Shown: positions 4,981 to 59,764 of the stretch, in pieces
Numbering within the stretch: the first letter of the stretch is position 1
Layout of the letters: each line of letters begins with the position of its first letter
NCBI GenBank assembly: GCA_051294905.1
Contig: CM119386.1
Span: 20,584,001 to 20,648,000 of the forward strand
Length of the DNA: 64,000 nucleotides
Direction: 5' to 3'
DNA from: Botryllus schlosseri
Lineage: Eukaryota
The notes under the pieces: model-generated
Databases searched by the model: none
The model's input: only the letters and a program-made list of their open reading frames with translations
What the model was told of the DNA's origin: nothing
Program-made: the position numbers and the translations under genes

Positions 4981-5154
4981 ACTTCACTTGAAACCAATCA
5001 CAAACTATGCATCGCCGGGGTTATTTTTATATTCCCGATGCCTATCACAAGTTTACTTAAGAATTTCCCAAAGTTATAAAATTGCATCTCATACTCCCCT
5101 ATCCTAACTACATAACGAACTTACACCTAACTTCAAGAATCAATTCTCTTACCT

Positions 5155-8298: not shown

Positions 8299-8380
8299 AT
8301 TAATTTAACGTGAAAATCTGTAATTCATATAGTTGTGTTTAGTTAAGCATGAGGGTTAAGAGAGCTTCGTCGGAGATTGG

Positions 8381-10966: not shown

Positions 10967-11112
10967 TGAGGTGGTATAGGCGTCGGTCCCCAATGCATAG
11001 GCTTACTATTTTATATTGAATATGATTTAATTATTGTCTGCAAAAATAGAAACATACATTGTCCGGTTTGTGGCTAACTTCCTTTCTTTATTGCGAAAGG
11101 CTTCACTGGGCT

Positions 11113-12074
11113 TTACTGAGGATTACCTTGTGTGTCAGGAATCTGATCACTAGGGTCGTCATTATTATACCGCGGGTCCAGAGATATCGTTTTCAACAGA
11201 GCCCCAAACCTTTTTTTACGGGGGTATCTTCTCTTCCAAAGCCACTCCCCCACATAATCGGCTAGTAAATGACGTGCTAGACCCCTCGATCTGTGTAAAT
11301 GATATTTCAGCGAGCTCCAGCAAGCCTCTAAATCATTGGTATGAACGCCCTGGGCAGATTTAAACGTGGTGGCGTGGTCAACTGATCCATGTTTATAGCC
11401 CTGCCCCCAACTTTCAATGCCCTTATACGATGGATAGCCATCTGTCAGAATGGTTGAACCTCTGGCTACATTCTTAATTATAAGTCTTTTCAGAACGTCC
11501 GCTGTTCGGTCAGATGTGATCTCCACAAACATGTCACCGGTACCTCGGTCCAGGCCACCGAAAGCCCAGACAGCCTTCACTGCTTGTTGACCGCTACCAG
11601 CTGCCCGTTTCCGCTTGGCCAAGTGGGTTTCGTCCAGGATTACAGTTCGGCCAACCCCGCCTAATTTCCGTTTACGTCTTTGTATGTAAGCAGAGCACAT
11701 CTTGCGCAGTTGTCCAGACCATTCTACCGTCGTACGTGCGCTGATCTCGGCCTCATGGGCCATTTGAATTTGTAGAGAGTCTTGGGCCCAAAAATAACTT
11801 AATACTAGCAGCTGGGGCAATCCAAGTTTGCTCTTTGAAAAAAATGAGTACTTGCGGATAGTAGCAGTGGTCCTACAAGATGAGCACCTCCATCTCCATC
11901 CGTCCGAAATTCTCTCGGTAGTCCGTTCTTCCTTCATCCATCTTGAGCATTCTCTGCAAATCATTTGTTTTCTCAGTAGACCCCGGCTTCTTAAAAAAGG
12001 GATGCAATCGCGTGTATGGGGTAAGGCTCCCATTTCCACCAATCGCAGCACATTGTAATCCTCGACGAAGGAGT
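11113..12074 (-). CDS. Merlin/IS1595 (ISXO2-like) DDE transposase, probably expressed from a spliced mRNA
   Basis: Zinc ribbon CREC...WRWRCSSC; catalytic motifs VILDETH, ILTDGYPSY, VDH, HTNDLEACWSSLK. ORF-track start 12099 is TTG inside a polypyrimidine tract ending CAG at 12077-12075. Confidence 0.9.
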
Positions 12075-12161
12075 CTGAAAAGTAAATAAAAAAGTACAAG
12101 TTCCTTTAACGATCGATCACTCCCCAGCAGTTAAATCTCGACGGCAGCGTCACCCTGCATC

Positions 12162-15100
12162 CTAGGCCAGGTTCTCCATCAGTATATACCCTGACGGTAT
12201 TGGCCCTTCGCACAGTATTACCTCGTGATTATGCGACTGTAAGAGTCGTAGACCTATCCTTCTGAGGTCGTTCGCCCTCATTCTCAGAACCGTTCTACGC
12301 CCACGTGCCTTTGTTGTGTTAATCTTACTCAAATGGATGAACCGTCGGTTCATTCTGTGTAGTTGGGTATCAATGATTTGACGGGCACCTTCGTCCGTCG
12401 TTGTGTGATACAGCATGTCATCGCCTAGGTACTCTTCGTATGGGGGTGGCATCCCTTTGGTGTGCCCGTGCGCTGCAGCCAGGCCTTCACCGGACATCAC
12501 TGCCCTGTCGCAATTGGCCATGATATCCTCAATTTCAGTTATCCCGAGGTCTTGTCGCAACTTGTCTTTGATTATTCCGCGAACTTCTTCCCAGGGGTGG
12601 TATCCATCGACAGAGTTTGCGCAATACTCGTGCCGACAGTGGAACATCAGGGTTCGCTGTATTTTCTCTTGTTGAAATTCTTTGTGTCCCGGGAGGGTGG
12701 CCCAGACATGAGGGTCATCATCTCTAGCAGCCATTTCCATCCAATAGGATCGGGACAATCCATCTGAAGTAAACACTTGGAACGTGCTCAAATGGATTAC
12801 CTCTTTTATCTGGAATCCGGAGAGATGATTTAGCCACCTTTGAATCAATGGCTTTGGGCTCGGGTTTTTTGCCTCATCTGTCATTCTTTTCAGGAGTCCA
12901 AAAACTCCCATGTTGTCAGTAATTATAGTGAAGGGTAAGGCGCGCAGCATCGACTGCCATTTCTCCACTGAATCCTTCAGGGCTTTAAGCTCTTTGGTGC
13001 ATGGGTCATAGGCTTTCGCCGTCGGAGTTACCCACTTTTGACTGTAGTAAGCGATCGGATACACCTCTTTGAAAGGGGGTTTTTCCCCCACATCCGTTTG
13101 AAAAATTACGGAGCCAAACCCTACATCTGATGCGTCAGTTTCCACAAAAATGGGAAGTCCTGGATCCAGATGATACAGTACCTTGGCACTGTCGAGTGCA
13201 GCTTGAGCTGTTTTGTAGTCCTGCAATAATTCTTCGGTCCAAAGCACCGGTGTCATTTTACCTCGAGTCGCTGGGACTTTTCCCGTTAGCGCATCAAATT
13301 TTGCCAACTTCAAGCTTAACTCTGGGATGTGCTCCGAGATGTAGCGCAGAGCGCCAATCCATCCTCGTAATTCGTATATATTTCGGGGTGGCGAAAGCTC
13401 CCGCAGAGCCCTTATTCTCTCAGGCTGGACCTCGATTTCTTTTCCCGTCAAGGTCGCTCCTAGGAGATTTGCCCTCCGTTTTCCAATAAAGCATTTATTG
13501 ATGCTGAGCGTCAATTTCATTTTAGCAAGCTGTTCAAATACCAACCGTAGGAGAAGCAAATGGTCGTCTACCGTTTTTGTGCTAAGGAAAATGTCGTCTA
13601 TGTAGGCCTCCATAGGCGTCGCATTCTCCTCATCCGATCGGCCATTTTGCTTCATGCGTTGGCGATACTTTTCCGTGATGGGTTTCACCGCGCATTCTTG
13701 CATGTTAGCGCTCCAAAGGGCAACTGCGGTCTTCAATCCCATCACAATCTTGCGCCATCTTACGTGCATTCCTTTGATGGCTATTCCCACATATTGCTTG
13801 GATCTTTCCGTGATATCCATGTGGAAATAGGCTTTCTTCAAATCCAGCAGGGAGAGCACTTCTCTTCCCTGGGCGAGTTGTTTTACATCTGGTACTAAGG
13901 GTGGAGGGACTTCGATTGACTTTATAGCAGCGTTCAGGGGCTGGAGATTCTGTACGACTCTCCATGATTGCTTCCACCCGTCCTCCTGCTTCTGTCTTTC
14001 ATTCATTTTTTGTGGGACGACAAAGATGGCCAGTTTCCATTCGGCAAATCCTTGCTCAATTATTCCCAGGTCCAAGAAGTTGTCCACTGCTTCTTTTAAC
14101 GCCTTCGCCTGGCCCTCCCCTTTCAGATTATAAGGTCCAGAAACAAAAGGCTTAGTCGAGGGATCCCTGAGTTCTATGTCACACTTATACTTCATGGCTT
14201 GAGGGGCTCGTAAGTGGCCACGCAGGTCCTCTAGTTCAGCTGCGAAAGGCTCATAGACGGCTTTCCAAACTTCGTCGGCAATGATGGTATTTTCCGGGGT
14301 CGTTAGATCAGGAGGTTTGTATGGAAGTTTCGCTAGTGCTACCGATTGTGCACAGAGACTTTCGAGATCCGTCTTAACGCTAAGACTGGTACCTTGTTGT
14401 AAGGTGTACGTGGTAACAGGGCCAATTATCGGCCGATGCGAATCACGTGAAAAACGGGGTTTTGGTGTTGGTGGAGAGGGGGCGAGGTTCTTCGTTGTCA
14501 GCGGGGATTCCCTACCTATCCAATCTGACCTCTGAACTCGGTGCGTGCCCACACCTACCGTCACGCCGACGGACTCAATCTCCGCCGGGGGCCCTGTTTC
14601 TGGGGAGACGTGCATCTTAAAATCCCCAGACTCCTTGTCGGACGCGCCTGGACCTACGTCCGGTTGACCGACAATAGCTGCTTCGTTTGAACCTTTTGGG
14701 AAGTTACTCATAACTGTGGCTGTCGTCCTGCATCTTTGGGCCGAATTATTACAGTTATTCGGGCAAGTGCATCCACGAGAGCTTTCAGGACCAGTTTTCT
14801 CGTGCAGGTCCTTATTTACGTCAGCCGGGATTCCGCGCTCGACGTCTTCATTAATAGTGCCAGCAGGGATTCCTGTCTCGACACTAGGGGTTTCCCGTAG
14901 GTTTCTCTCGACGTTAGTGGTATTTACCAACCCGTCGTCCGCGCCAGTGGCGATTGCCATCTCGACACTTGCGTCAGCGGCGACGGCCGGCAATAATGAC
15001 CGGCGCGCCGACTCGACGCTTATCTGATTTGCAGCTTCCATCAACCCATCGTCGGTAGCAGCGTTGCAAGGACTGTTTCCGACTCTGGTTCCATCCCGTC

Positions 15101-15632
15101 GATCGCACGAGATCTCGTCATGTAGTGTTACTAAAGACAACTCTTCGTTTGCATTAGACGGAGTTTTGAATTCAGTCGTTATGTTCGGTAATTGTTGTAC
15201 CTGATCAATCCATTTTAACCCAATAATATTGAGAGGGACTCCTTTCCCGGTTGCAAATGGAACCGGTAGTCCATCGAAATCAATTATTACCAAGGAGTCA
15301 ACGTGGGAAGAGCCCCCTATGCCGCGTAATTTCATGTCTAGGGGTTGTCGCTCCTCCCAGCTTCGTGGGTATTTGGTCTTAACAACACTTTTCATTATTA
15401 AATTGGGGATGCTTCCCGTGTCGGCCAAGAATTTAGTTTCCGTTGTGGTGTCAACCAAATACAAGAGCCGACCGCCGAATAATTCCGTAAAGTCTGGCTG
15501 TAGTGGGTTATCCGGTGTATCAAGAAATGTAAATAGGGGTAGAGAAGCATTATGTACAGTTTTTGCGTGTTGGGGTAATAAGTTATCTGGGAGCTGATTT
15601 ACCGGATCAATCAGCACCCCCAGTCGTTTTTT
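12162..15632 (-). CDS. pol: Pol: aspartic protease, spacer, reverse transcriptase, RNase H, C-terminal Tpt1/KptA-like domain; no integrase
   Basis: FLADTGS protease motif; RT WRVVQNLQPLN, LLDLKKAYF, YIDD; Ty3/gypsy-type RNase H VETDASDVG...KELKAL...TDN...DGLSR; final ~167 aa match Tpt1 motifs; no HHCC or DD35E integrase. Entered by -1 frameshift from gag. Confidence 0.93.
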   Translation of the reverse strand, partial: KKRLGVLIDPVNQLPDNLLPQHAKTVHNASLPLFTFLDTPDNPLQPDFTELFGGRLLYLVDTTTETKFLADTGSIPNLIMKSVVKTKYPRSWEERQPLDMKLRGIGGSSHVDSLVIIDFDGLPVPFATGKGVPLNIIGLKWIDQVQQLPNITTEFKTPSNANEELSLVTLHDEISCDRRDGTRVGNSPCNAATDDGLMEAANQISVESARRSLLPAVAADASVEMAIATGADDGLVNTTNVERNLRETPSVETGIPAGTINEDVERGIPADVNKDLHEKTGPESSRGCTCPNNCNNSAQRCRTTATVMSNFPKGSNEAAIVGQPDVGPGASDKESGDFKMHVSPETGPPAEIESVGVTVGVGTHRVQRSDWIGRESPLTTKNLAPSPPTPKPRFSRDSHRPIIGPVTTYTLQQGTSLSVKTDLESLCAQSVALAKLPYKPPDLTTPENTIIADEVWKAVYEPFAAELEDLRGHLRAPQAMKYKCDIELRDPSTKPFVSGPYNLKGEGQAKALKEAVDNFLDLGIIEQGFAEWKLAIFVVPQKMNERQKQEDGWKQSWRVVQNLQPLNAAIKSIEVPPPLVPDVKQLAQGREVLSLLDLKKAYFHMDITERSKQYVGIAIKGMHVRWRKIVMGLKTAVALWSANMQECAVKPITEKYRQRMKQNGRSDEENATPMEAYIDDIFLSTKTVDDHLLLLRLVFEQLAKMKLTLSINKCFIGKRRANLLGATLTGKEIEVQPERIRALRELSPPRNIYELRGWIGALRYISEHIPELSLKLAKFDALTGKVPATRGKMTPVLWTEELLQDYKTAQAALDSAKVLYHLDPGLPIFVETDASDVGFGSVIFQTDVGEKPPFKEVYPIAYYSQKWVTPTAKAYDPCTKELKALKDSVEKWQSMLRALPFTIITDNMGVFGLLKRMTDEAKNPSPKPLIQRWLNHLSGFQIKEVIHLSTFQVFTSDGLSRSYWMEMAARDDDPHVWATLPGHKEFQQEKIQRTLMFHCRHEYCANSVDGYHPWEEVRGIIKDKLRQDLGITEIEDIMANCDRAVMSGEGLAAAHGHTKGMPPPYEEYLGDDMLYHTTTDEGARQIIDTQLHRMNRRFIHLSKINTTKARGRRTVLRMRANDLRRIGLRLLQSHNHEVILCEGPIPSGYILMENLA

Positions 15633-18484
15633 GAGAGTCTCAAGCCTTGTTCTAGTTCCTCATCCGTCCAATGCGAGGCGTCATAGCGACGTGGAGGACG
15701 GCGATATAGCGGTTCCGTCCAGGCCACTTGGCTATTGCCCTGGTTCGGTTGTTCAGGTGGGCCCTGAGGACCCCACTGATCCCTATCATGCCAGTGGGTT
15801 CTATCTCTATTTTTTGGCCTAGAGTCATAATAGGCCTCGCACAAGGCAGTTCTCTGTGTCAGAGAGGGAGAACCTTGGGTGGCAAGGTATCGGTCGAGGT
15901 CCGGGACCGTCAATATGTTATTCCTTGCAAGGAAAGGCTCCCAGTTGCGTTTTGTGGACTCCTTAACGCGTGGGGGTACCGGTCGTATTCGTTTGCGAAC
16001 TACCCAACCTAAGGTATCATCCTTGGCAATCACCTCCTCATTTAGCCAAAGCACGAATTTTGCCACGCAATTACGGGATTGGTGTCCCGGGGCCTTACAA
16101 TAATAACATACGGATAAGGACTGCCCCTGAGGGGGGTTCAGATACAAGCCTAGAGGGGCGAAAATGTTGGGGTTCCCAAGAAAATTATACCTCTCACCTT
16201 GGCTCTCCGCGATGCGGAGGGCTTCCTGACTGCTAGACGGCGTGATTTCCTGGCTGTCCCCGCCGATTCCAGAGTCCTGCGTATTCATCACCCGAGGTCT
16301 CCGGTTCGAAGTACTTGGCCCCTGACTTGTTTGAGGAGATCTGGAGTTCCGTGCTGGTGGAACGCTCGGTCCATTCGATGCGTTGCGCCCATTTTGTGTT
16401 CGGGAAGGTTTGGCCCTGGTAGCCGGGCCCTGTCTGCCAAATCCATTTCCACTCATTACATTGGTAGGAAAACGGTTGGTCTTTGCGCCGCGAGGAGGGC
16501 CACGTCGTGGCTGCGAAGCTTGCCCGACGCCGACGGGCTGCCGTGGCGACATATTCCCCGTCGGTCTGGGTGGTGTCCCCCCGATCATGTGCAGAGGTTG
16601 TTGGGGTGAGGGTGGTTGCACCATCGGAAGTGGTGGTGTAGTCGGTGGAGGAGGGGTGTTTATTCGTTCATCTCCACCCCCGTGAGTAGGGTAACTGTGC
16701 ATCATGGGTCCTGCAGGCTGAACATTATATATGTGTACAGGCGGTAGGGGCGACATTGCTTCACGCGTCTTTCTGGCCTCCCGAGTGGTGGGTCGTACCT
16801 CTTGTTCATCCAAGAACTCAGAATTCCAGTACAGCTGCAAATCCTCTGCCACCTCTTGCCAGGACCTGCTATCCCATCCCCGCATCAGCAGTCTAAGTGC
16901 TTCTGGTAATCGTTGTCTTAGGTTGCGGAAAAGTCGCAGCCCATCCGGATTCTCGTTGATTTCCGCCTCCATATCTATCTCTAGTTGCTTTAGGGCGCTA
17001 TTCAACAGCGGAAGAGGTTCGTCTTCCCACTGATAATTCCTCCGGAAGTCGTTGATGACTTTTTCATTGTTAACCAAGCCTTGCGGGTTGGATAGCGACA
17101 ATGATTTCATGACCGAAACCCATTTTGCATTTCCCGAGTTGGTGTTGAAGAAATTCCCTAGCTGATTAGCTTGTTTGAGGCGACCCGCACTTCTCAACTT
17201 CTTCTGCATGGCATTAGCCAGGATGATATCAGTATCAGTGCCGCCCTCACCGTGTCGTATACGCCTCATCGTATTAGCCATCCACTTTAGAAGTGGCATG
17301 TCCCCAGGGTCCATCATTAGCTGTAGCATCTCCTTTTCGGACTGGAACCTTTCGGGCGTAGTCAACACCGGGTTTACGGCATCATTCCGTGGTTGTTCTC
17401 GCGGAAGTCTCGATCTACCTTCGCTTTCTCTTGGGGTAGATGTGTATCGAGGTAATCTGAGGTATTCAGCGATGTCCGAAATATCCTCTGCGGGTTCGCT
17501 TGGGTTGGGCCGACCAGAGTCCCGTTGAAGCGTCCGCGTGGTTTCCCGAATGGCCTCCCGTGCCTCCGCTATTTGTCTACCCAATCTGTCCAATTGGGCG
17601 TCAGTATCTTCCCCCGAGTCTTCAGGCTCTTCGCTTTCGCCTTGTCGGTAGTTCGTTCTCCCTTCCTGAAAGGTAACGCGCCTTGTTGGAGTGCTGGCCG
17701 CACCTTGTGTCCTGGTCCGGGTTCCTTCGGCTGCTCGTTGATCGTCGAGCCATGCGCCGAGCCGTTCTCGAGCGTGTGCATAGTCCTCGTCTGAATCTGG
17801 TCCAGTGTCTGTTCCGGTTCCACTCAGCTGAAATAGACTGGGTGTATCGACTAGGCTCCCCCTTCGTCTTTCGGGGCGTGTCCCATTCCAAACTGGAAAG
17901 CATGGAGTCGTTTTTGGATGAGAATCTGATGGCGACTTCGGCTTGGAACCTGGCAACGTAGGGTAGACTGTCGTTACGGTATGGCAATCCAGGCCCTTTT
18001 GGACTGTAAACGTGGGCAGTGGCGCTGTTGCCCTGGACGATTTCCCAACGGGCGGATCATACGCCGGGGGAGGTGCTGTAGCCATTACGGACAGGGGAGA
18101 AGGTGGTGGTGGTTTACTTTCAACCACTTGGGCATGGGCTTTGCCCAGTTCAAATTCCGATTTCAGAATCTCACTGAGGACTTCAGTGGAGACTTTCCCG
18201 CTAACCTTCGAAGTTGCATCGCATACTGCTTTGAGGTCGGCTTGAGCTCGCCTGACTTCTTTCTTGGCTTTTTCCAGCCCCTTCATTGTCTCGGGCAGAG
18301 TTGATTTGACTTCTTTTAGTACCTTCGTTTGATCAGCCACGTCTTTTGCCAACTGTCTTTCTTGTTGTCTGACGCCTTCGTGGCGTTTTTGCGTGGCTTT
18401 CAGTAGCTTGATGCCCTGCTCGAGCTCGCCTGCCGCCTTTGACGACTTATTCTTCTTTTTAAATAATTTTAGCATTTTTCGCAT
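15611..18484 (-). CDS. gag: Gag polyprotein, 957 aa
   Basis: Upstream of and overlapping pol; basic N-terminus, coiled coil, PPAY and YPTL late-domain-like motifs, single CCHC knuckle CYYCKAPGHQSRNC. Confidence 0.9.
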   Translation of the reverse strand: MRKMLKLFKKKNKSSKAAGELEQGIKLLKATQKRHEGVRQQERQLAKDVADQTKVLKEVKSTLPETMKGLEKAKKEVRRAQADLKAVCDATSKVSGKVSTEVLSEILKSEFELGKAHAQVVESKPPPPSPLSVMATAPPPAYDPPVGKSSRATAPLPTFTVQKGLDCHTVTTVYPTLPGSKPKSPSDSHPKTTPCFPVWNGTRPERRRGSLVDTPSLFQLSGTGTDTGPDSDEDYAHARERLGAWLDDQRAAEGTRTRTQGAASTPTRRVTFQEGRTNYRQGESEEPEDSGEDTDAQLDRLGRQIAEAREAIRETTRTLQRDSGRPNPSEPAEDISDIAEYLRLPRYTSTPRESEGRSRLPREQPRNDAVNPVLTTPERFQSEKEMLQLMMDPGDMPLLKWMANTMRRIRHGEGGTDTDIILANAMQKKLRSAGRLKQANQLGNFFNTNSGNAKWVSVMKSLSLSNPQGLVNNEKVINDFRRNYQWEDEPLPLLNSALKQLEIDMEAEINENPDGLRLFRNLRQRLPEALRLLMRGWDSRSWQEVAEDLQLYWNSEFLDEQEVRPTTREARKTREAMSPLPPVHIYNVQPAGPMMHSYPTHGGGDERINTPPPPTTPPLPMVQPPSPQQPLHMIGGTPPRPTGNMSPRQPVGVGQASQPRRGPPRGAKTNRFPTNVMSGNGFGRQGPATRAKPSRTQNGRNASNGPSVPPARNSRSPQTSQGPSTSNRRPRVMNTQDSGIGGDSQEITPSSSQEALRIAESQGERYNFLGNPNIFAPLGLYLNPPQGQSLSVCYYCKAPGHQSRNCVAKFVLWLNEEVIAKDDTLGWVVRKRIRPVPPRVKESTKRNWEPFLARNNILTVPDLDRYLATQGSPSLTQRTALCEAYYDSRPKNRDRTHWHDRDQWGPQGPPEQPNQGNSQVAWTEPLYRRPPRRYDASHWTDEELEQGLRLSKNDWGC
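15626..15632 (-). promoter_or_regulatory. -1 ribosomal frameshift heptamer A AAA AAC
   Basis: X XXY YYZ heptamer in the gag frame five codons before the gag stop; pol is in the -1 frame; identical heptamer at 50408-50414 in element B. Confidence 0.85.
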
Positions 18485-18528
18485 AGTTTATGTAACTTTT
18501 GTTTGTCTGTATTTTGGTCCCGTACCTT

Positions 18529-18864
18529 TTATTGGCTAGGGGAAGTACCGTTACGAAGTAGATTACCCACGGTCGCGGTTTTGTTGTTTTCGATCACTCG
18601 CCCTTGCGTTGTAGGTGCGGAATACCTTCCGAAGATAACTGGGTCGGTCTCGTTGGCGATTGCCACAGCAAATCCGTTACGTGGGACAGTAAGTGCTTCG
18701 GCCGTTGTAGTGACGTCGTTAGAGAGACCTTCAGGGTTTGTAGTAGGAAAGAATACCGGCACGAGGTGTACGTAGACCGACGCCAACGTTATTAGCAGAG
18801 ATATAGCAGAAGTGATTACTGTCACTCCGAGCACGATTCTCACGAGGGTCGTCTTCGCGCACAT
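18529..18864 (-). CDS. Small leader ORF, putative type II membrane glycoprotein, 111 aa
   Basis: ATG start just downstream of the PBS; hydrophobic anchor at aa ~7-39; sequons NET, NKT, NGT; stops 45 nt before the gag ATG. Confidence 0.6.
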   Translation of the reverse strand: MCAKTTLVRIVLGVTVITSAISLLITLASVYVHLVPVFFPTTNPEGLSNDVTTTAEALTVPRNGFAVAIANETDPVIFGRYSAPTTQGRVIENNKTATVGNLLRNGTSPSQ

Positions 18865-18893
18865 TAATAGGTCACTGTTTTTTCACCGGAAAA

Positions 18894-18911
18894 ATCTCGC
18901 CGATGGCTCCA
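18894..18911 (-). promoter_or_regulatory. Putative tRNA primer-binding site (tRNA-Thr-like)
   Basis: Minus-strand TGG-A-GCCATCG-GCGAG-AT(T): geometry of CCA, U73 discriminator, 7-nt acceptor strand, 5-nt T-stem and T-loop start; lies between TATA region and first ORF. Confidence 0.65.
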
Positions 18912-19120
18912 GTAATGTCTTTATAGTGCAGCTCCGATAACGATTGTTATGCGAGTCGTCTACACTTGGTTCGGATTATTTCGCGGTGAGGAGTTGACCT
19001 TCTATTGCGCTGTATTGTCCAGACGACGTCCGTGGATGTTGATTGAAGCAGCAGTAGTTGCAGTAGTGGTACCTTTCAGTATCAGACAATGACCCTTAGG
19101 TCCAGAGTTCTAAACTAGTC

Positions 19121-19128
19121 TTATATAA
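19121..19128 (-). promoter_or_regulatory. TATA box candidate for the element A genomic RNA
   Basis: TTATATAA about 180 nt downstream (minus sense) of the enhancer-like array and about 210 nt upstream of the PBS. Confidence 0.5.
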
Positions 19129-19305
19129 CGTGTAATTAAGCCTTAATACAACCAAATACTCCAATAAATATCATGCAGACAGAATGAGGTATCTAAGCAA
19201 AACTCGGTTAAATTGGCACATAGAATATCCATCAATTATAACACAAGATAAAGCTTAAACCTATTCATATTCATGCACGATTAAATGTATTTTAAATACT
19301 CCAAG

Positions 19306-19521
19306 GTTTGTTTTCGCATACAAACTATGCGACGGCCTTTCCTGCCGAAGTGGTATCTTTCAGGGTTTGTTAACACATAATTAATGTGACGGCCTTTCCT
19401 GCCGTAAAATCTCATAGGTTTGTTTACACATATAATGCATGTGACGGCCTGTCCTGCCGTAAAGCAGCTCCGAGGTTAGTTTACACATCTAATGAATGTG
19501 ACGGCCTTTCCTGCCGTAAAG
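19306..19521. repeat. Four ~56-bp tandem repeats, enhancer-like
   Basis: Unit GGTTTGTTTACACAT...ATGTGACGGCCTTTCCTGCCGTAAA; cores at ~19330, 19387, 19441, 19498; contains forkhead-like TGTTTAC and ETS-like TTCCTG. Confidence 0.85.
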
Positions 19522-20396
19522 TTCATTCATGACATATCGCTACATGATACACCATTCAATTCACAATAGTCATGCACGATCCAATGTTTTAATCACTATC
19601 TGTTATATCTCTGCGTTCCTTTGTATCGGTATGTATAAGCTTTTTATTCATTCGTATGTACCGTGTCTCACAGACAATCGATCTGATTTACCACGAATCT
19701 TTAACTCTACACATGCTCCAATAAGGTAGAGGTTCCTAGCTTAGTCTAAGGGTGCGTAGCTAGTTATAACGCATAACTCCGGGAGGTTCCAACATTAAGG
19801 ACTTTGTATCGTTGACCCGATTAACATGGCCATATGCCAATTAAAGTGCACTTGATGATACTACCCTTAACAAGGTGTTGCTTATTCGAACACTGTTAGA
19901 TACCCAGGGTCCCTTTTACGGGTTTTCTGAAGAAATCCCTAACCATTTCTAATCCTAAGCTTCTATCCCGTTAGGGTGAAGGGTCCCGACACTAATATAG
20001 GGCGTGGTCGGTGTATAACGCCTAATTAAAGCCTACAGGCAGAGTACTCGCTACCATATTGCTGTAGTAACAACCAGTTATTCACATACTAAATCTTCAC
20101 TAACCCATACACATATCTACGACATAAAATGTTAGCGCCATTTTAAAGCAACCTGATGTTATTGATCAAAGATACAGTAAAGGCAGCGCTTGAACAAAAT
20201 GGCGTCACCATACAATAATACATCAAAGTAACCCTCACATGAAAATATCAATGTCCTGTTATGACTCACGCGTCTCGTCATCATGCCGCAGATTGATTCG
20301 TGTCGTTGTTCGTCAAACGCATCCTCTTCAACCTCCATCATCGTATGTTCAGGACATATTTGGCAACCGTACGCTTGGGTACTCTGTCTTGTGCAT

Positions 20397-20618
20397 CTAT
20401 TTCGAACCCGATTTCTTCAACCCCCTTGCTGATGAAACGATTCTTCTGCGTATCTCTTCTTGATTTTGCAGCCGTCTTGATCGCCTCTTTTCTCCGCTGT
20501 CTTCAACGCGACTTCTTGCGGGCAGTGTTTGGCACGTTCCAACCTTTGGTTCACTGGTCCTTGCTGAGCAGTGATTGACAGTGCCGGATTTCTTCTCATC
20601 TCGTTCATTTGACTTCAT
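20397..20618 (-). CDS. Possible small basic accessory protein, 73 aa
   Basis: ATG start, same strand as element A, Lys/Arg-rich (EKRRSRRLQNQEEIRRR); short enough to be chance. Confidence 0.3.
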   Translation of the reverse strand: MKSNERDEKKSGTVNHCSARTSEPKVGTCQTLPARSRVEDSGEKRRSRRLQNQEEIRRRIVSSARGLKKSGSK

Positions 20619-21239
20619 TAAGCCCTAGATTCTATCGAGGGGAGCAGTTTTTCGGGACTGTCGAATAGTAATTTTAGAGTTGGTACCGCCAAGCCGTTCA
20701 TTAATGCCAACAGAATGTCCAGTTCATATCGATACTCTCATGCCCTCTCACCACTTCAGTCAGTCTTATTATGGCCTCCTTGTGAGCAGGGCAACGAATC
20801 TTGGGCACGTTTTCGAGACGCTCTTCTTGTCATACTAGTCGTAGATACATTCGATGCGCACAGGGAGGACATTAAATACACACATGTCGGAATATTGCGT
20901 CATTTGCTATCGTAACGTTGCCAAAATACAATAATTTGCATGCACGTACTGATCATGGTGCCATAAGTGCACTTGTCAGACACATCCATTTCGAGAAACG
21001 AATGTGCCAACAAGGCGGGTCTTATTCTAATGTCATACTCAATCATCGACACATCAGTTTCGAAAAACGAATGTGTGGACAAGTTCAACCATGGGTTACT
21101 TTTCTAAGGTCTTTATATTAGCAGTACTGGCCTGAGGTATTTCTAATGTTATAGGCCTATTATTTCTGGTTATAATATTCATTTTTATTCATCCTATGTA
21201 GTGCCATAGCAATTTACAACGTAGCTACGTTGTAAATCG

Positions 21240-21615
21240 CTATGGTAGCACCTTAAACGTTTTAGAATATCTGTCGGTCTTCACCAGGGTCTTCCACCGA
21301 GGTACCGACCTATGGTACAATAGTAGCCCTAAACTTTTGGAATCTATGTCGGCCTCCTCCAAGGTCTACCACCGAGGTACCGATCTATTTTATTTAGTAT
21401 AGTCCTAATCGTTTTGGAAATTGTGTAGGTCTTCTCCAGGGTCTACCACCGAGGTACCTATCTATTTTATTTAGTATAGTCCTAATCGTTTTGGAAATTG
21501 TGTAGGTCTTCTCCAGGGTCTACCACCGAGGTACCTATCTCTATTGCACGTAGCCCTAATCGTTTTGGAAAGTTAGTCGGTCTTCTCCAGGGTCTACCAC
21601 CGAGGTACCGATCTT
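21240..21615. repeat. Five ~74-77-bp tandem repeats
   Basis: CCACCGAGGTACC at ~21295, 21369, 21446, 21523, 21597, each preceded by CCTAA...TTTTGGAA...GGTCTTCTCCAGGGTCT-like sequence. Confidence 0.9.
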
Positions 21616-21757
21616 ATCCAGCCTTTTAAATCTATTTTCATATTTTAAAATTCGCAATTCTTATGAATTCAAACAATCTCCGTTATCATGATAAATACTG
21701 GGGTCTGTTAACTATCGTAATTCTTGCACTTGATAAATTTTTACGAATCGAAAAGCT

Positions 21758-22264
21758 TTATTCCGATACTTTCAGTGCCATATAGTGACAATCAGCTTCC
21801 TCTAGCGACAGTGAACGCGTTTCCGCGTACGCGTAAATCTGGACTTCGGGGAAGATCACCCATTTTACGAGATTACGTTCAGTCTTTTCATCACTTAGTA
21901 TCTCTACCCACTCGGGGTTCGCCATTTTCATGGCTTTTACCCAGTTTACACAGATATCTGCGAACGCCATTTGAAGAGGTCCTTCAGGATGAAGGCTCCC
22001 TGCGTAAGTACCTTCCCACTCGTTTTCATCGAGCTGTTTACCAGTCCAATCACTGTCGCACGTTTGGAAGCCGCTCTTTCTTTCCCAGTAGCGAAATCGT
22101 AGACTGGAATCATTAACAAATATATCGTAAAGATGATCTGTTAACGAGTGTGTTGTCATAAGAAATTTCAACGACTTTAGTCTGTGATCGATAAAGTCCT
22201 CTTTTTGTGGTTTCGATATTAGGTGCTCCGTCTCGGGTTCTTTGCAACGCAAGCCCAGGCACAT
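21758..22264 (-). CDS. Accessory ORF of unknown function, 168 aa; homologue of 63136-63555
   Basis: ATG start, AATAAA just after the stop; MCLGLRCKEPETEH...HL...RFRYW aligns with MCYGLGCNPGTDH...HL...RVRYW. Confidence 0.65.
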   Translation of the reverse strand: MCLGLRCKEPETEHLISKPQKEDFIDHRLKSLKFLMTTHSLTDHLYDIFVNDSSLRFRYWERKSGFQTCDSDWTGKQLDENEWEGTYAGSLHPEGPLQMAFADICVNWVKAMKMANPEWVEILSDEKTERNLVKWVIFPEVQIYAYAETRSLSLEEADCHYMALKVSE

Positions 22265-22281
22265 ACTAATATTTTAGCGTT

Positions 22282-22572
22282 TCATATTGATGCAATAAAC
22301 CTTAAATATGCGCATATAGAAATGTTTAAATCGACCACTATCGCTTCATTGGACATTTTTCCGAGTCTTCGAAGCCTAGGACCAGTCCAACTACTATGAT
22401 ATTTTTCACGTACTGCAAGTTGGGTTCTCGCATTATAGAACTCATATAGCAGCGCTGTTGCGGTCGACCGGCTGCATGTATCACGCGCGGTGACAGTTTC
22501 CGGCAGCTTACAGTTGAGCGCAACACTGACTGAATAAATAAACAGCCACTGATAGCGTTCAAAATGAAGCAA
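22282..22572 (-). CDS. Possible accessory ORF, 96 aa
   Basis: Lies immediately upstream of and co-oriented with 21758-22264; no recognisable motif. Confidence 0.25.
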   Translation of the reverse strand: MLHFERYQWLFIYSVSVALNCKLPETVTARDTCSRSTATALLYEFYNARTQLAVREKYHSSWTGPRLRRLGKMSNEAIVVDLNISICAYLRFIASI

Positions 22573-24535
22573 CCCAGTGAAAGCACCGGAGATCTATTGC
22601 CCCCCACCAAGGCTTTTTTTATTGTTTTATAAATTTTTTTTTAAATGATTTTGTACTCCGTATAACTTTTATCTTTGGTTTTCGCTTTCGTAATTTTTTA
22701 TATTATCTTTACATCATTCAGAATTTATTCATTTTTGTAATTTTTTTCACAATAGGTTTCTATTTTTAGGATTTTTTTCGTAGTGGGTATTATACTATAC
22801 AACACGCGTATATACACAATTTAATATATCTCTCCACCCCAGCCTTCCCCCCTTTCTTTTACAGGAATTGTCAGCGGTCACATTCCTTCCATCATACTAA
22901 CAACGTGTCGAATGGGAGGCGAGGTTTTCCCATAGTTAACCAAAGTGTCATACTGGATAGGAAGTGCCGAGAGTCGTGCTCATTATTTATCTACCTAGCT
23001 CCATCACGTGAGCACCTGATAGGCTGAATTTTTCCCCATTAATATTAACCATCAGACACTCAAAAGAAGACACCTCCTACCATTCGGTAAGTGCCAAGCG
23101 GTGTCATTTATATCCATAGAGTGAGGGGGGTGCCGAGAGACAGGGATGGGAGTATGCCTTCCACATAAATATACATTACTATTTACAGATCAATTTGCGG
23201 TTTAGATATAATCAATAATAATAAATTTCATATCCATCTGAGATTCTCAAGGTGTCCTGTGTTCGTCACGATCGAAATTTCACAAAAAATAATAATATAT
23301 ATACATGTAATATATAAGCAGCAATTTAAAATACTTTAAAGAGTCTCGTAGTTATATCTCCAAACTCGCGGAGCCGACTGTAGCGAGGACCAAATAAAAA
23401 GGGAAGAAATGTAAGTAAATTTAAAACTCAAATATAATTAATAGATTAGCAAAAACATTTCATAATGAAAATAGGGTGATTTTTCACGGGGCAGGGGGTC
23501 TGGGAACGTTACCCGCCTTTTGATACTATCTTCTCCTTCTTGTGACGACTTTTCGGGTGTAAGGGCTATTGCAATTGGACCACATTACCCTCATAAATGA
23601 TTGTGGCGTTAAAACAAATCATTCACTACAGCGTGCGTCCTCAATTGCATTTATACCCTGTGATTTAATATAAACTCAACACAACAGACAACAGACGTAG
23701 ACAATACAGTTTCTATGCTTATTCGAAAAATCATTTTTGTATATAAGGTGGGAATTGCGCAGCCTTGTATTCGAGTAAATGAACTATCCGTAGTCCCCGA
23801 GATGTTTTTTCAGGGGCACACTTAGCGATTCAATCACAATACAATGTCTTTTACTTTCTGGAACTTAACATAAATTTTGTGTATCGGTATAATAAATCCG
23901 TGTATATAATAAATGAAATACAAGAATACAGCTTCTACTTTAGAGCTATTCTCCAGTTACACTGTATTCTGACTCAAATTCTTCCGTTAAGTTGAGCTAG
24001 ACAGGGATGCCGAATTATTACGCTTGTCCTAATTCCCTATCAGCTATAGCCTTATTAATTTAGTTGTCTCGGCTTGTCTGGTAGTCTAATCACCACCAGT
24101 CCGTTTGCCCTATTCAGCAGCTTTCGAGGCGTGATCGCACGTTTCCTTAGGCAGAGATTGCGGCATTTAGAACGTCATGGAATGATGATATCTATACGTG
24201 GGCTTATGATACGATAGGCTGTTTTTCAACAAAGCTATGGTCAGCGATGATTCCACACAAAGGTTCGCAGCACATACCGTTCAATACAGACCTAGCCGCC
24301 CCTATCTCTGAAGTAAGTAACAAATAGTGAATGCATTATGACCCCAACCCGCCATCACTAAGGTTGGATCAAAATTGATCCCAGGCGAACAAATATGCGA
24401 TCCATATTTTTATGTGCGGTCGGATTGTTCTTGCCATCCATGTAATCCTAAATGGTGCTATACACTATCAATCAGAATAATACCTTTGCTGATTATCGCT
24501 AATACCTCGCCGCTATGAGCTATTGATTGAGCATG

Positions 24536-24798
24536 CAGAGGTGGTCACCAACGGAGTACTTCTACCTTTTGAATTACTCGAAGTAGATTTTCCCGACTCA
24601 CGCTACCTTTTAGGTAGTTATGCTTTTGGACTAATTCTACTTCTACTTGACCGTTTTCTGTTTTGTAGGCAAAAATATGCGTAGAATACCTACTTACTTA
24701 CTTGTGAACTATAAACTCCTACTTCTACTTGAGTAGAAATTCCGGCGTCACTTCTACTTCTACTTGAGCAGAGACGGCGACTACTTTGACCACCTCTG
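24536..24798. mobile_element. hAT-like MITE, 263 bp
   Basis: Perfect 12-bp TIR CAGAGGTGGTCA / TGACCACCTCTG; internal TACTTCTACTTGA repeats; flanks share AGCAT but the 8-bp TSD is imperfect. Confidence 0.65.
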
Positions 24799-26178
24799 AG
24801 CATATGTCAGACTATTCTTCGAAAGTATAGCGGGCAGACTGAGTACTTTTCTCCTCATTGTAATCGGAACGATTACGACTGCTCATGGCTCTTTCGCATT
24901 GTTTATGTCACATGGAGTCAATGAGGCATGACCACAAGCCTTCAGATCTGATGGGGTCAGTCTGACCCCAGCTCGCCATTTGTGTTATGGTGCCATGCCT
25001 TGAGGAGGAATCTTTGAAATAGGCAGACAGTTGGGTTCAAAAGAAGAAGATTCCTCATTATAACGTCTTGTAGGAGGTTATTATACAGCGGGTCAGCGAA
25101 GTTGGTAACACAAGAAGCATATAAACTGATGGGGTCATTTTGACCCCACCTGAGCAATCACGTAATAGTAAACCCTTAGTCGTTTAGGGTTAAGTGAGAA
25201 TTGCGTGGTTCCCCATATACTTAGGGCGGATAAATTCAAGTAATACGTCGGCCAGGCGATAGAGAGAAATGAACTCAATCTATTCAATGAAATACACAAT
25301 TAACCAACCTTTTAATCGAATCAATGCAAGTCCTCATCAATTATGCTTTGCAAAACAAGCACTTATTATATCAATCAACTATATTCTGCAAAACGAGGAC
25401 TCGCCATCACAACTAACTCTAAACCGCACGTGAAGTTCACTGGATCGGTAACATCAGCATGGGTACCACTTATCTTAGTGTGTACAGCACATACGACCGC
25501 AGATAGAGCGACTTGACCGACCCTGGACGCTGGATGATTTTCGAAATTGACCCACCAATTATATTTTGCGTCACGTGATAGTTAATTTATGTCTCCGCCT
25601 GGCCAATAGAACCAGTTCAACTCATTCTTTTGCGAATTAGCCGAGCCAAGCCAAAATATACGACGAACACGCGCCCTTTTCCAAGATGTCACAACTCAAG
25701 GTTTAGTAGGCCGGCTACCACCACTTTGCTTCCTTTTACCCATGAAGGGAGCTATCTAAGCAGTCTAGCATTTAATATTAGCTGGCGCCATTTTGGTTCA
25801 CTAGTGATATCTTCGTACCGAGGCCAATCGATAATTGTTACAATAACGGCATATCGCCATATTTAAAATAACGCGCATCTTTTTTCCGCATAGGAAATTC
25901 GGCCGATGGCCAGCGGTTGACGGCGAACTCGGTTAACGGCGAACTTGGGATTCAAACTCTGGTTATTCGGTCGTATATCGGTGTCATCCCTGTCTGAAAT
26001 TGGGCCACAGACTCAGAATGTAGCCGCGCAGGACCCATTTCAAACAATGAACCGAGATTTCATAGGGTTTTAGCCAGTTCGTAGTGCAACTTATCGCATC
26101 GCATGGAGTATTTGGTTGTATTAAGATTTAAAGTAATCTAGGCTATAATCTAGGCTATATACCCATCCAAGAAACAAA

Positions 26179-27009
26179 ATGACAAAGCCCGGAACAAACG
26201 AAGATGACATCTTGCTGAGACTGAAAAAGATGGAGAGTAAACTGGATAATACGCTCGCTGAAGTCAAAGTGTTGAAGGAAGAAAACAAGGAACTGCGCAA
26301 CATCATCTCAGAACTGCAGACTACAGCTGAAGATATCAAAAAATCTGGTTCTGCCGTAGAAGAACTGCGAGAAGAGATAGAATCTTGCAAGACTGGTATG
26401 GAATTCATGAATGCAGAATTTGAGGACACCAAAAAAAATCTAGAACGCGCCTCACAAGAATCCATGGTCAACGAGCACGACAAATTTGAGTCAACTATGA
26501 GATTCCTGAACAAAAAAATATCTGACCTAGAACGCACCAACGACAACCTGGAGCAGCAATCTCGAAACAACAACCTGGAATTTCATGGTGTTCCCCACTC
26601 CGAAAAAGAGAATCTGCCTGAAACTATCATGAAAATAGCTAACGCCTTGAAAGCTGAGATTACTGCGCCACAGATTGTGCAGTGTTATAGAGTGCGCTTC
26701 AGAAATAAGGACAAAACAGGACCCGTTATAGCCAAATTCTCTTCTGAGCAACCAAAAAAAGAATTCCTCAAAGTGAAAAAGGCCAAAAGGGATATCAAGG
26801 ACTTTGGTGTAGAAGGAATGAAACAACTCTTCCTAAACGAAAATTTAACAAATTACAGAAGTGATGTTTTCTTTGAAGCGCGAGCTGCGAAACAAAAAAA
26901 AAGCTTCAAATACCTCTGGACTGCAAATGGAAATATCTATATGAAAAAGAATGATGGTGCACCCAGAATCCACATTGAGTCAAAGGATGACCTCGATAAA
27001 CTCAAATAG
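26179..27009 (+). CDS. LINE ORF1 (coiled coil, RRM-like and C-terminal domain), 276 aa
   Basis: Long N-terminal heptads, then SRNNNLEFHGVP, GPVIAKF, LFLNENLT, YLWTANGNIYMKK typical of CR1/L2-group ORF1. Confidence 0.85.
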   Translation: MTKPGTNEDDILLRLKKMESKLDNTLAEVKVLKEENKELRNIISELQTTAEDIKKSGSAVEELREEIESCKTGMEFMNAEFEDTKKNLERASQESMVNEHDKFESTMRFLNKKISDLERTNDNLEQQSRNNNLEFHGVPHSEKENLPETIMKIANALKAEITAPQIVQCYRVRFRNKDKTGPVIAKFSSEQPKKEFLKVKKAKRDIKDFGVEGMKQLFLNENLTNYRSDVFFEARAAKQKKSFKYLWTANGNIYMKKNDGAPRIHIESKDDLDKLK

Positions 27010-27054
27010 AAACTGCTATACTGCTCTCACTGCAAACGCAACCCACACTAAAAA

Positions 27055-29967
27055 ATGGCTCAAAACTTTTTCAACGGGAGCAACTGCAGATCTATCAATT
27101 CAACGAATAGTAGTGATATCCCATCATCCCCAGGAATTTTACTTGCACACTTAAACACAAGATCCCTCCAAGCTCATCTAGATGAAATTCCCCCCCTGTT
27201 TGAAATGTTCAATTGCTCACCAACCATCATCGGAATCTCTGAGACCAAGTTGAAAGAACATCCAACGACTAATGTTAACCTGACAGGTTTCAACTTTTTG
27301 CACTCGCCATCCAAAACGAACGCTGGAGGTGTTGGACTATACATCAACGAAGGTCTGAGATATGACATGATGCCCGACGTAAAATTTGAAACCGAAGGCG
27401 TAGAATATATATTTGTCAGAGTACATGTACAAAAAGCTCTCACAGTGGCAGTCATCTACAAACACCCAGGAACAAAGCAAGAGACTTTTCTTGACGAATT
27501 CTCAAATATTCTGGAAACGCTAACGGCAGCTAACGAACAAATATTTATTATGGGAGACATAAATATTGATTTGCTGAAGACCACCAACTTTAACACAAGG
27601 TACCGTGAAATGCTTGATTCTTATGGAATAGCTCAGATAATTACTGAACCCACAAGAATAACTGATCAATCCAAAACTCTACTAGATCACTTCTACTGCA
27701 ACACTCATCAATATCACCTGTCCCCTTTTGTGCTCCAACACAGTATGACTGATCACTATCCCATCATCTGCCACATGAAATTGGCCCTGCCACATTGTGC
27801 TAAAGAATTCGAATCTCGAACGCCCTTAAACCCACGCGGTATAGAAGAGTATATTGAAATTGTCAGCAATACCTTCAACAACTACAAAATTCCTCCACTC
27901 ACAACTGACAACTACAACTGCCATTTTGAAAAATTTATTGAGGAACTGCGGGCAGCCCTCGACACATCTTTCCCAATTAGGAAAGTCAACCGCAATGCAA
28001 GGCGCTTGAAATCGAAACCCTGGATTGGTCATGACATACTAGTTGCAATCAAAACAAGGGATTGGATGCATAAGCACTACTATCTGCAAGGCACCATCGA
28101 AGGCAAAAAAGTGTACAAAAAATATGCAAACCAAGTGACGCATATGAAAGGAAATGCCAAAAAAGCATACTTCCAAAAAAGATTCGAAGAGTGCTCCAAA
28201 GATCCCAAGAACACATGGAAAACCATTGGAGAAATTATCAACCTAACTAAAGGTAATGCTCCCAAGAGTACTGATGACATCGAGCTACTCGAGAATGGCA
28301 GCATCATCAAAGACCAGCTTGCAGTAGCAGAAAAGTTCAATCAGTATTTTTGCAACATTGGTCCGGATCTTGCAGCTTCAATACCAGACTCCTCCGATGA
28401 CTTTCTCTCGTACTTGAGTCCTGGCCCTCAGAAATCCATTTTTCTTGAGCCGACAAGTGAAGGAGAAGTTGCGATCGTATTATCTGAAATGAAAAGTAAC
28501 AAAGCAGTAGGACCCGATCTCATCCCAACTCACTTTCTGAAGCTAGTATTTAATATTATTGGTGATGTTATATGCATTTTCTTTAATGAGTCGATACGTC
28601 TAGGCATTTTCCCAGATGCACTGAAAACTGCCAGAGTAATGCCAGTGTTTAAGAAAGGCTGTAAAAAGCTAATTTCTAACTACCGACCAATATCTGTTTT
28701 GCCAAATCTTGCCACGGTTTTTGAGAAACTGATTGACTGCCGACTTAAGAACTTTTTTGAATTGAATGCAGTACTGTCTCCGACCCAGCATGGATTCAGA
28801 TCCAACCACAACACCAACCATGCAATACTATCAATTGTAACGGACTATTACAAAACCATCAAGCAAAAATAAAGTGGCTGCAGCATTTTTATCGATCTCC
28901 GCAAAGCTTTCGACACAGTTAACCACAGAATCTTAAGATACAAGCTAAAACACTATGGAATCAGGGGTATTGCAGCAACTCTACTTGAAAGCTACCTGGC
29001 AAACCGCAAGCAATTTGTTAAACTTGGGACATTAAGAACGACTACCAGAGATATAACTTGTGGAGTGCCACAAGGCTCAGTCCTTGGACCGACTTTTTTC
29101 CTCATTTATATTAACGACATTGTTAATGCATCTTTATTCCGCACAACGCTATTTGCTGATGATACTCACCTCTTCATAACCTCCAACACTGTCGATGATT
29201 TGCATGCATCTGTGAATAGGGAACTCCCAAAAGTGTCGAGATGGCTGCAAGCAAACAAACTAAGTTTGAATGCAGATAAAACCGAGATGCTCGTTTTAAA
29301 TGCCAGTCATAATTTCACTGTGAACATCAATCATAAACAAATCTCAATATGTGACTCAGCAAAATATCTCGGCGTCACCATTGATTCCAAATTGTCTTGG
29401 AAGCAGCATATTGAATGCACAATATCAAAACTAGCTCGGTGTGTGGGAATAATGACCCGTCTCCAATCTTTGGTTTCCAGATCAGTACTACGAACCATCT
29501 ACTTCTCTCTTTTCCACTCGCATCTGCAATATGGAATCGTAGTATGGGGAAATGCCTGTACAACATTTTTGTGCAGAATTCGAACCCTGCAAAACCGTGC
29601 GATACGGCTGATCTCATCTGTACCTTTACGTACCAATTTATCGCCTTACTACCGTAAGCATCGAATTTTGCGAGTTGATGAACTGTATCGCTTCGAAGTA
29701 TCAAAAGTTGTTCACAAATATTTTTCCAATAGTCTCCCTCCTGTGTTTGATGACTTTTTCATACCTGCTAAAGATGTCCATTCCCATTACACGAGATCTT
29801 CGTCTAAAGGAAACGTCTACTTACCCCAACCCAATAGCAACCTAACTAAGAGATCTATCGACTACTCGGGACCTATCATCTGGAATGCATTACCATCACA
29901 TATCCGTGAATTGCCTTATAATAGATTCAAAAAAGCCCTACTTGATCGCCTCTTGTCGTTACACTAA
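27055..29967 (+). pseudogene. LINE ORF2 (apurinic endonuclease + RT) broken by one in-frame TAA at 28870-28872
   Basis: APE motifs HLNTRSL, ISETKL, GDINIDL, TDHYPI; RT reads KQK*SGCSIFIDLRKAFDTV in frame, then VPQGSVLGP and FADDT. Confidence 0.9.
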
Positions 29968-35900: not shown

Positions 35901-36029
35901 AGTACTCAAGTCAGTCCCATCTACTTCTACTGCCTGATCAAACAGGCGAGTATTCGAACTACTTTTTAACTATCAACATGCCCGGGTAGAATTTTGTGAT
36001 GTCCAGGACCACTGTGGTTACCCACACCG

Positions 36030-59740: not shown

Positions 59741-59764
59741 CGGCTACAGAAAAGACATAGAGTC

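Follow-up and report, generated by a model that had tools for sequence, protein, structure and literature searches.

A 64,000-nucleotide stretch of Botryllus schlosseri DNA (assembly GCA_051294905.1, contig CM119386.1, forward-strand positions 20,584,001 to 20,648,000; hereafter the window) carries members of a family of giant elements that fits no known kind: it resembles a tRNA-primed reverse-transcribing element in its working and a Merlin transposon in its insertion, and it is a member of neither group. All of its elements share one cyclic order (leader, primer site, gag, pol, transposase, env1, env2, accessory genes, and back to the leader), which is opened at different points in different lineages. 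The opening lies between pol and the transposase in the element that we call C and in most families, and between env2 and the accessory block in element A and one other lineage. Read along the RNA, both elements would show a retrovirus-like order with the accessory genes at the 3' side. Given the internal RNA start and primer site and the predicted permutation of the cDNA, we think it probable that the elements are copied through a circular DNA that is opened and inserted by the transposase.

The permutation was exposed by two short open reading frames (ORFs), one at 21758..22264 (minus strand), 5' of gag in A, and one at 63136..63555 (plus strand), 3' of env2 in C. The original prediction regarded them as the same accessory gene in two positions; the ORFs, their positions, and their homology were confirmed, but they are two paralogues, accA (paralogue 2, in A) and accC (paralogue 1, in C), and not one gene. 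BLASTP of the pair gave 18/77 identities (23%; E = 2e-5), and in the alignment with shuffled controls that had been proposed as a check, their Smith-Waterman score of 58 was matched or beaten by 0 of 2,000 shuffles. As one unrelated ORF among the 76 window ORFs compared scores 60, the pairwise match taken alone is marginal. Profile-profile comparison of seven accA-type with four accC-type proteins gave a probability of 93.5% (E = 2.3e-7 over 135 columns). The DNA comparison of the two genes returned no similarity (best E = 3.8), and one element carries both genes 4 kb apart, with a 49%-identical relative of accC upstream and a 58%-identical relative of accA downstream; the two are homologous but are not a single gene. 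Both paralogues occur in 29 of the 61 elements of a genome census described below, always with accC first (29/29), and one element has a second, 35%-identical accA-like gene and thus two accA-like genes. They are part of a fixed block (accC, segment Y, accA, second transposase, arrays) that precedes leader, primer site, gag, and pol in both layouts; A has lost accC and kept accA, and C has lost accA and kept accC. Segment Y is non-coding, lies at 23845..24044 (minus strand) in A and at 63588..63790 (plus strand) in C with 78% identity between the two, and sits between accC and accA in fuller copies.

The window copy of accC is internally deleted (139 amino acids versus 242 in a sister copy). 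accA is under purifying selection (dN/dS of 0.09 to 0.18), and in the commonest family 17 of 18 copies keep it intact. The accA-type proteins may carry a weak PWP3A-B_C-like domain: PF20886, the C-terminal domain of PWWP3A/B, was weakly matched by five of seven accA-type proteins (best E = 1.7e-6) and two of four accC-type proteins (best E = 9e-5), with single-protein scores of 22.9 and 18.8 bits for two D proteins against a curated cut-off of 27 bits; the window's own accA and accC proteins gave no PF20886 match in the Pfam scan. A homologue search with the accessory proteins returned a single match, 89% identical to a D protein, the matches in the Atlas were unrelated or below 0.9, and no solved structure was matched. 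Most likely, the accessory proteins act as modulators taken from the host, as do an apoptosis inhibitor and a ubiquitin-conjugating enzyme encoded next to them. In the commonest family, the accessory block (L028-L029, C3:29428000-29443000) encodes a leucine-rich-repeat (LRR) protein, two BIR-domain ORFs (one with RING), a ubiquitin-conjugating enzyme, a second transposase of the IS1595 type, and nine ORFs that match no Pfam family. The second transposase (about 43% identical to the first, tnp1) has its own start codon, lies directly after accA, was found at 29 loci of the genome, and groups in the tree with the transposase of the B families. The gene pair in itself is ordinary paralogy, and its value is that of a marker.

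Element A (4672..46378, minus strand) spans 41.7 kb including later insertions and has a target duplication with 7 of 8 bases matching. It starts with its left inverted repeat (46358..46378, minus strand), followed by 20 kb of largely non-coding DNA, Y, a weak candidate polypurine tract that could serve as plus-strand primer (22843..22860), accA, a 77-bp tandem array (21254..21614), a 57-bp tandem array (19299..19521), an exact DNA copy of the host 24-base spliced leader (19142..19165), and a primer-binding site of 19 bases complementary to host tRNA-Thr(CGT) plus CCA (18893..18911), all on the minus strand. On the same strand follow a small hydrophobic ORF (18529..18864), a gag-like ORF (15611..18484), the pol frame (12162..15659), tnp1 behind a conserved splice-acceptor-like site (11113..12075), env1 (8381..10966), and env2 (5155..8298), a paralogue of the N-terminal part of env1 with a mucin-like stalk; the right inverted repeat (4672..4692, plus strand) closes the element. 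These ends and this layout recur in five other copies at other loci, each with different target duplications. Two LINE-related sequences lie within A: an insertion at 26104-30249 (plus strand) that starts with most of the spliced leader, which other copies have in full (L101 and L103), and an RNase H-bearing fragment at 44592-45850 near the left end that is missing from a sister copy.

Element C (plus strand) has its left 13 kb, of 24.7 kb, within the window (50950..64000), and its target duplication is a perfect 8 bp. Its left inverted repeat (50950..50970) has a second, internal copy at 51095-51115. The transposase gene tnp1 (51237..52176) starts 290 bases inside the left end and precedes env1 and env2 (52296..59432), 99-bp and 63-bp arrays with three further accessory ORFs (59765..62991), and accC. 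The 63-bp array (60434-61028) precedes a TATA box and the accessory ORFs; its repeated motifs resemble what we take to be NF-kappaB and CRE sites. Beyond position 64000, where a look for arrays, a TATA box, and a U5-like end had been suggested, the same 77-bp and 57-bp arrays do follow, but they give way to the leader (68129-68152 in window count), a tRNA-Thr(AGT) primer site, the small ORF, gag, pol, and an inverted-repeat right end at 75611 (window count). The 3' part of a distant family member, element B, with a broken pol, occupies 46803..50949 (minus strand). The three members are thus clustered, with C inserted in the gag of B and the end of B 425 bases from the left end of A; an ordinary gypsy element with an integrase-like ORF lies immediately left of the window (L005).

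The ends of A and C are imperfect inverted repeats of about 21 bp that start with GG and match at 11 to 16 of 21 bases. Mapping the ends in many copies, another of the checks proposed at the outset, yielded inverted repeats and 8-bp duplications at most end pairs: the duplication was perfect in 15 of 23 end pairs read by script, in 2 more read by eye, and in 15 of 18 further copies, with one element common to both sets. RNA reads across empty sites omit exactly the element plus 8 bases. A direct repeat longer than the local arrays, as an LTR would be, was absent from A, C, and three other full copies. The ends themselves are not permuted, in that the 280 bases inside the right end of A, after env2, are homologous to those inside the right end of C, after pol. 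In A, C, and D, poly(A) hexamers occur 52 to 79 bases in from the right end, which weighs against copying through a circle. Non-autonomous elements of 10 to 15 kb with A-family ends are present at at least 40 loci (including L059), and the leader is altered in the one copy examined, suggesting that the ends may also move by cut-and-paste.

These ends bear directly on the three explanations that the original prediction had offered for its finding. An LTR of about 3.5 kb that encodes proteins and stands at both ends would account for Y, the arrays, and an accessory paralogue being found upstream of gag in A but downstream of env2 in C, and accA does lie between the candidate polypurine tract and the leader. 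This reading is refuted, and we give it next to no credence, since C runs on into gag and pol and ends in an inverted repeat, long direct repeats are absent from the five full copies, and gag-pol is not flanked by accessory genes on its two sides in any of the 61 census elements. What may survive of it, through the candidate polypurine tract, is a weak indication that accA lies within an unpaired U3-like stretch of 3.7 kb at the 3' end of the RNA. That A sits behind the remnant of a tandem copy agrees with the gene order alone; A is, however, one unit with one end pair and its own target duplication, in a layout shared by five other loci with different duplications, and such a remnant at this locus is scarcely credible, although the A layout may originally have arisen from a tandem or concatemer. 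The remaining explanation, integration of a circular or circularly permuted intermediate, stands as far as the circular permutation is concerned, whereas random integration of a circle does not: the ends are fixed and of the transposase type, and it is the gene order between them that is permuted.

We surveyed the genome with four protein searches and counted 61 transposase-bearing elements, after setting aside 39 of 129 transposase matches as weak or partial, 29 matches that were second transposases, 6 of 44 accA matches (five interrupted by stops, the sixth being the 35%-identical second accA-like gene), 5 of 39 accC matches covering only the C-terminal part, and 78 of 142 pol matches. The C layout (transposase, env1, env2, accessory genes, gag, pol) was found in 51 elements, with pol 12 to 80 kb downstream of the transposase, pairings over 50 kb being counted without a check for nested insertions. 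Seven elements have the A layout (accessory genes, gag, pol, transposase, env1, env2), with pol directly upstream of the transposase, and three transposase hits were unpaired. The seven A-layout copies comprise the A family and, as a separate lineage, one element that is closer to a C-layout family; a single A-layout clade was rejected with the C-terminal part of pol (AU test, p = 0.00012; the group was defined by layout, with the tree already in view). Given that the B families have the C layout and that the tree is rooted at its midpoint, two moves to the A layout would be the shortest account. The transposase and pol trees are largely congruent, suggesting that both genes travelled together. 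We hypothesize that the two layouts arose because the end joint was relocated, on two or more occasions, to a different non-essential site, for example by a new end pair entering the circle, as the available text on Teratorn proposes for that element (PMC10175614).

The start of the RNA is marked by the leader. When four RNA runs were compared with an 8-kb derivative of the family, thousands of reads matched only a 32-base spot before gag, flanked on one side by a template-switch adapter and on the other by a wide variety of mRNAs: the host spliced leader, which forms the 5' end of many host mRNAs. The 24-base sequence is listed as a chordate spliced leader in the available part of a published account (PMC3795323). 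It is exact in 31 of 37 elements, from families whose pol proteins are 47 to 98% alike, and none of 175 non-coding windows was equally conserved. A G precedes the leader in 18 of the 37 elements, compared with 18% G upstream, and 1 to 3 bases there are variable. Copying over a cap would give such an extra G. Further, a retrocopy of A-family RNA (L096) begins exactly at the leader. We therefore infer that the leader copy marks the 5' end of the element RNA and the strand-transfer site. The TATA box at 19125 had been considered as start site and was superseded by the leader, and capture of a spliced leader (SL) RNA gene was rejected, as the GT after the leader is unconserved and the downstream sequence differs from that of two candidate host genes. 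Those candidates (L098 and L099), with the leader followed by GTAAG and a common downstream stretch, may be host SL RNA genes or SL-derived repeats.

Several other leader-bearing sequences were observed. Short tandem duplications of the 3' part of the leader occur in elements and in SINE-like repeats (L008, L032, L036, L016, L090, and L105), reminiscent, we presume, of relict leaders in dinoflagellate retrogenes. At L104:340-390, what we take to be a U1-snRNA-like 5' fragment is joined directly to the leader and a repeat, possibly as a template-switch chimera. About 400 single-cell reads, with 80 starts, accumulate on the sense strand immediately before the leader, the pattern expected of an RNA 3' end; these reads derive from a different copy and were not counted as evidence. 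The 8-kb derivative (L066:992-9028, minus strand) has both ends, a perfect duplication, leader, primer site, and intact gag and pol, and is without transposase and env. A subfamily (L047 and L050), with about ten such matches in one of the protein searches, has most of the reverse transcriptase (RT) deleted and gag, leader, and ends intact.

About 225 bases after the leader, all families have a site that starts with TGG. Complementarity extends over 19 bases to tRNA-Thr(CGT) in A, 18 to tRNA-Thr(AGT) in C, and 18 to tRNA-Ile(AAT) in the D family. In 30 of 37 elements, one or another of these sites is present, and in 1 of the 37 the region lies past the end of the locus. Two scores of 28 bases in the tRNA comparison arose artificially from truncated strings. 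For the B and C8 families, no matching tRNA was found among the 17 host tRNA loci compared. The site switches tRNA between families and also within the A family, among copies 92 to 98% alike, and both tRNA-Ile variants are mirrored at its base 18. The candidate polypurine tract is present in all five A-family copies that keep the region, 3.6 to 5.4 kb before the leader; positionally similar tracts were found in four other elements and none in two, and two families have no conserved tract.

In pol, a protease was identified by its DTG motif only, followed by RT (YIDD), RNase H, and a Tpt1/KptA-like domain. The gag-like ORF was identified by position and by a CCHC knuckle just under the Pfam cut-off (zf-CCHC, E = 5e-4). 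Its neighbor env1 is an envelope candidate by sequence features (signal peptide, basic cleavage site, hydrophobic peptide, and C-terminal membrane anchor), and the envelope candidates had no Pfam match. The transposase contains a DDE_Tnp_IS1595 domain (Pfam E values of 2.9e-13 and 3.9e-10), with the DDE motifs present in A and C. An integrase family was absent from the pol of A and B (Pfam, at an E threshold of 0.1) and from the relatives P0001 to P0003, and no recombinase family was found among the ORFs scanned with Pfam. The RT, RNase H, and DDE motifs are intact, and dN/dS was 0.06 to 0.07 for RT-RNase H, 0.12 for gag, and 0.09 for env1; strong purifying selection acts on RT and gag in every family that was compared. 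Elsewhere, pol has three close relatives with the same architecture (37 to 46% identity), the remainder being gypsy-like (21 to 29%); matches to long polyproteins were rejected, as these were concatenated gypsy models. The Tpt1/KptA-like domain (12162-12660, minus strand) ends pol in all families and in P0001 to P0003, which come from other assemblies.

Recombination among copies is heavy, with sub-kilobase mosaicism among copies whose target duplications are intact. Among 18 D copies, r2 falls from 0.43 to 0.15 within 1 kb. Across the leader, r2 was 0.03 to 0.05 with 83 to 100% four-gamete failures (over 25 to 200 bases), compared with 0.24 to 0.36 and 27 to 40% elsewhere; at 150 bases none of the 451 windows had a lower value, and at 250 bases it ranked within the lowest 1.3%, a contrast that rests on few haplotypes. 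With a second alignment method and 19 copies, r2 was 0.026 across the leader versus an independence mean of 0.059, and 0.79 just downstream but 0.14 to 0.17 upstream, on few sites. We propose that this linkage break results from a strand jump at the leader.

These observations can also be set against a giant cut-and-paste Merlin transposon that once captured a retrovirus-like cassette, its leader and primer site being fossils or kept for expression and its linkage break arising from leader-targeting LINE endonucleases and repair. The Merlin-type ends and duplications and the non-autonomous derivatives are as such a transposon would have them, and leader copies also head LINEs and SINE-like repeats. 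Nevertheless, we consider it quite improbable, because a fossil cassette accords poorly with a primer site that changes tRNA among nearly identical copies, with the strong constraint on RT and gag, with mosaicism despite intact target duplications, and with the variable bases and excess of G right before the leader.

Reverse transcription that starts in the middle of the element would give a cDNA permuted relative to the integrated form, and a circular intermediate would therefore be needed. In the copying cycle that we propose, which follows established retroviral chemistry, the genomic RNA would begin with the trans-spliced leader, and a host tRNA would prime about 250 bases of minus strand, up to the leader. 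There, the minus strand would jump to an RNA end matching the DNA just upstream, with the 24-base leader as terminal redundancy, and synthesis would continue leftwards through the accessory genes and the left end. As pol and gag would still be uncopied at that point, synthesis would then have to cross a right-left joint back to the primer site. The resulting circle would contain a single unpaired LTR-like region; the transposase would open this circle at the joint and insert it, and the 8-bp duplication points to the transposase as the inserting enzyme. The joint itself may come from transcription of an excised circle or from a second template jump between two RNAs cut by trans-splicing. Linkage between the right and left ends was r2 = 0.10, versus 0.21 to 0.23 in adjacent windows (18 copies, 4 × 10 and 17 × 22 sites, low power), which argues against both ends being on one template in every cycle. 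The ends are linked no more strongly than distant windows are, and this is better explained by a joint that forms in a second template jump, or by frequent exchange close to the ends, than by a single template bearing both ends. We found no support for the notion that the transposase must draw a first exon from beyond the joint, as exons with a start and a donor are possible inside the left end in two families and the B-family transposase carries a start codon of its own.

The same ends and joint data were weighed for a linear route without a circle, by which a single RNA running from the left to the right end is copied from its 3' end, the leader and primer site give short recombining cDNAs, and the layouts are ordinary block translocations of transposase and env. 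Consistent with this route, a right-left joint had 0 matches to the exact pattern in the genome (spacer of 0 to 12, four end types) and was absent from four RNA runs in which the depth over the element body was mostly under 2, the ends show no extra linkage, and recombination is frequent everywhere. In the same RNA runs, at the same low depth, a joint from a leader-side donor to the transposase acceptor was likewise absent. We nonetheless regard the linear route as improbable: the sole primer site found lies inside the element and follows the host tRNAs, neither a primer site nor a terminal redundancy was found near the right end, and two independent translocations would both have put the transposase about 110 bases or less from the pol stop, in the same cyclic order.

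Copying through a circle could also be part of a fuller life cycle, that of an enveloped reverse-transcribing tunicate virus of 17 to 40 kb with a prophage-like cycle and a movable joint resembling an attachment site, a reading that we put forward tentatively and hold to be possible rather than probable. By this reading, the transposase would excise the element and re-close it as a circle, and trans-splicing would cut a read-round transcript at two successive leaders to yield a unit-length, leader-redundant genome. Synthesis primed by tRNA would then rebuild the one-LTR circle, and the transposase would open it at the movable end joint. More speculatively, the task of the Tpt1-like domain could be to remove a 2'-phosphate, or what remains of a branch, from the 3' part of the RNA.

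Known integrating reverse-transcribing elements use either LTRs and an integrase or a circle and a tyrosine recombinase. In the elements described here, tRNA-primed reverse transcription is apparently coupled to a cut-and-paste transposase, with an unpaired LTR-like region in mid-element and a movable end joint, which would show a way to dispense with LTR ends and integrase. They would link caulimovirus-like copying to precise integration in an animal, with host trans-splicing setting the 5' end of the genome, and they make exact predictions, namely, a right-left joint and a strong-stop DNA of 250 bases. Tools that find LTRs would miss such elements, and the anatomy explains why. In the titles and abstracts searched, no RT element with an IS1595/Merlin transposase was described, Repbase, Dfam, and most subscription journals being outside the search.

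Metaviridae and complex retroviruses have the order gag, pol (with integration enzyme), env, and accessory genes and are primed by tRNA. The present elements resemble them in cyclic order, tRNA priming, recombination among copies, and carriage of an apoptosis regulator as cargo, and gypsy-type RT and RNase H are their next relatives, at 21 to 29%; giant envelope-bearing Ty3/gypsy forms are known, according to the available part of one report (PMC6431247). Unlike Metaviridae and Retroviridae, they have no LTR pair and no rve integrase, with a Tpt1-like domain at the integrase position, and their integrated form would be permuted relative to an RNA that starts with a trans-spliced leader. DIRS and Ngaro elements have a gypsy-related RT, no integrase, and a tyrosine recombinase and are thought to insert a circular cDNA, without target duplication or env and with split or inverted repeats and an internal complementary region. 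The DDE transposase and 8-bp duplication of our elements set them apart from this group.

The closest model for the proposed copying step is provided by the Caulimoviridae, in which tRNA-primed copying leads, without an integrase, to a circle with one copy of the terminal redundancy (PMC7660458); in our elements, the anatomy points to such a circle. Those plant viruses, however, are 7 to 10 kb in length and have no envelope and no integration (PMC7660458), whereas the elements here have a chordate leader and precise, transposase-type insertion at fixed ends in dozens of copies. Kuafuorterviruses, from invertebrates and chordates, are described in the available text as having LTRs, an integrase, a size of 5 to 6 kb, and the motifs IADD, VADD, or LADD (PMC11673190); our elements have YIDD and, compared with that description, none of the LTRs, the integrase, or the small size. 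Teratorn, a piggyBac-herpesvirus fusion for which insertion into circular or concatemeric virus DNA was proposed and both terminal and internal transposase positions are reported (PMC10175614, available part), is likewise a virus-like genome bounded by DNA-transposon ends. As described there, it differs in being a DNA virus with piggyBac, a TTAA target, and no reverse transcription. Merlin elements have a DDE_Tnp_IS1595 transposase, ends starting with GG, an 8- to 9-bp duplication, and inverted repeats of 24 to 462 bp (PMC8101967, available part). With Merlin/IS1595 our elements share the DDE_Tnp_IS1595 transposase, the GG ends, an 8-bp duplication, and imperfect inverted repeats, although these repeats are shorter than that range. 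Merlin transposons move without an RNA intermediate, the transposase being their sole autonomous gene; in our elements, gag, pol, env, and the primer site are conserved as well. Members of Merlin described in the same available text have a single transposase gene (PMC8101967), whereas our elements often have a second transposase and extend over 17 to 60 kb with gag, protease, RT, RNase H, two env-like genes, and a tRNA primer site.
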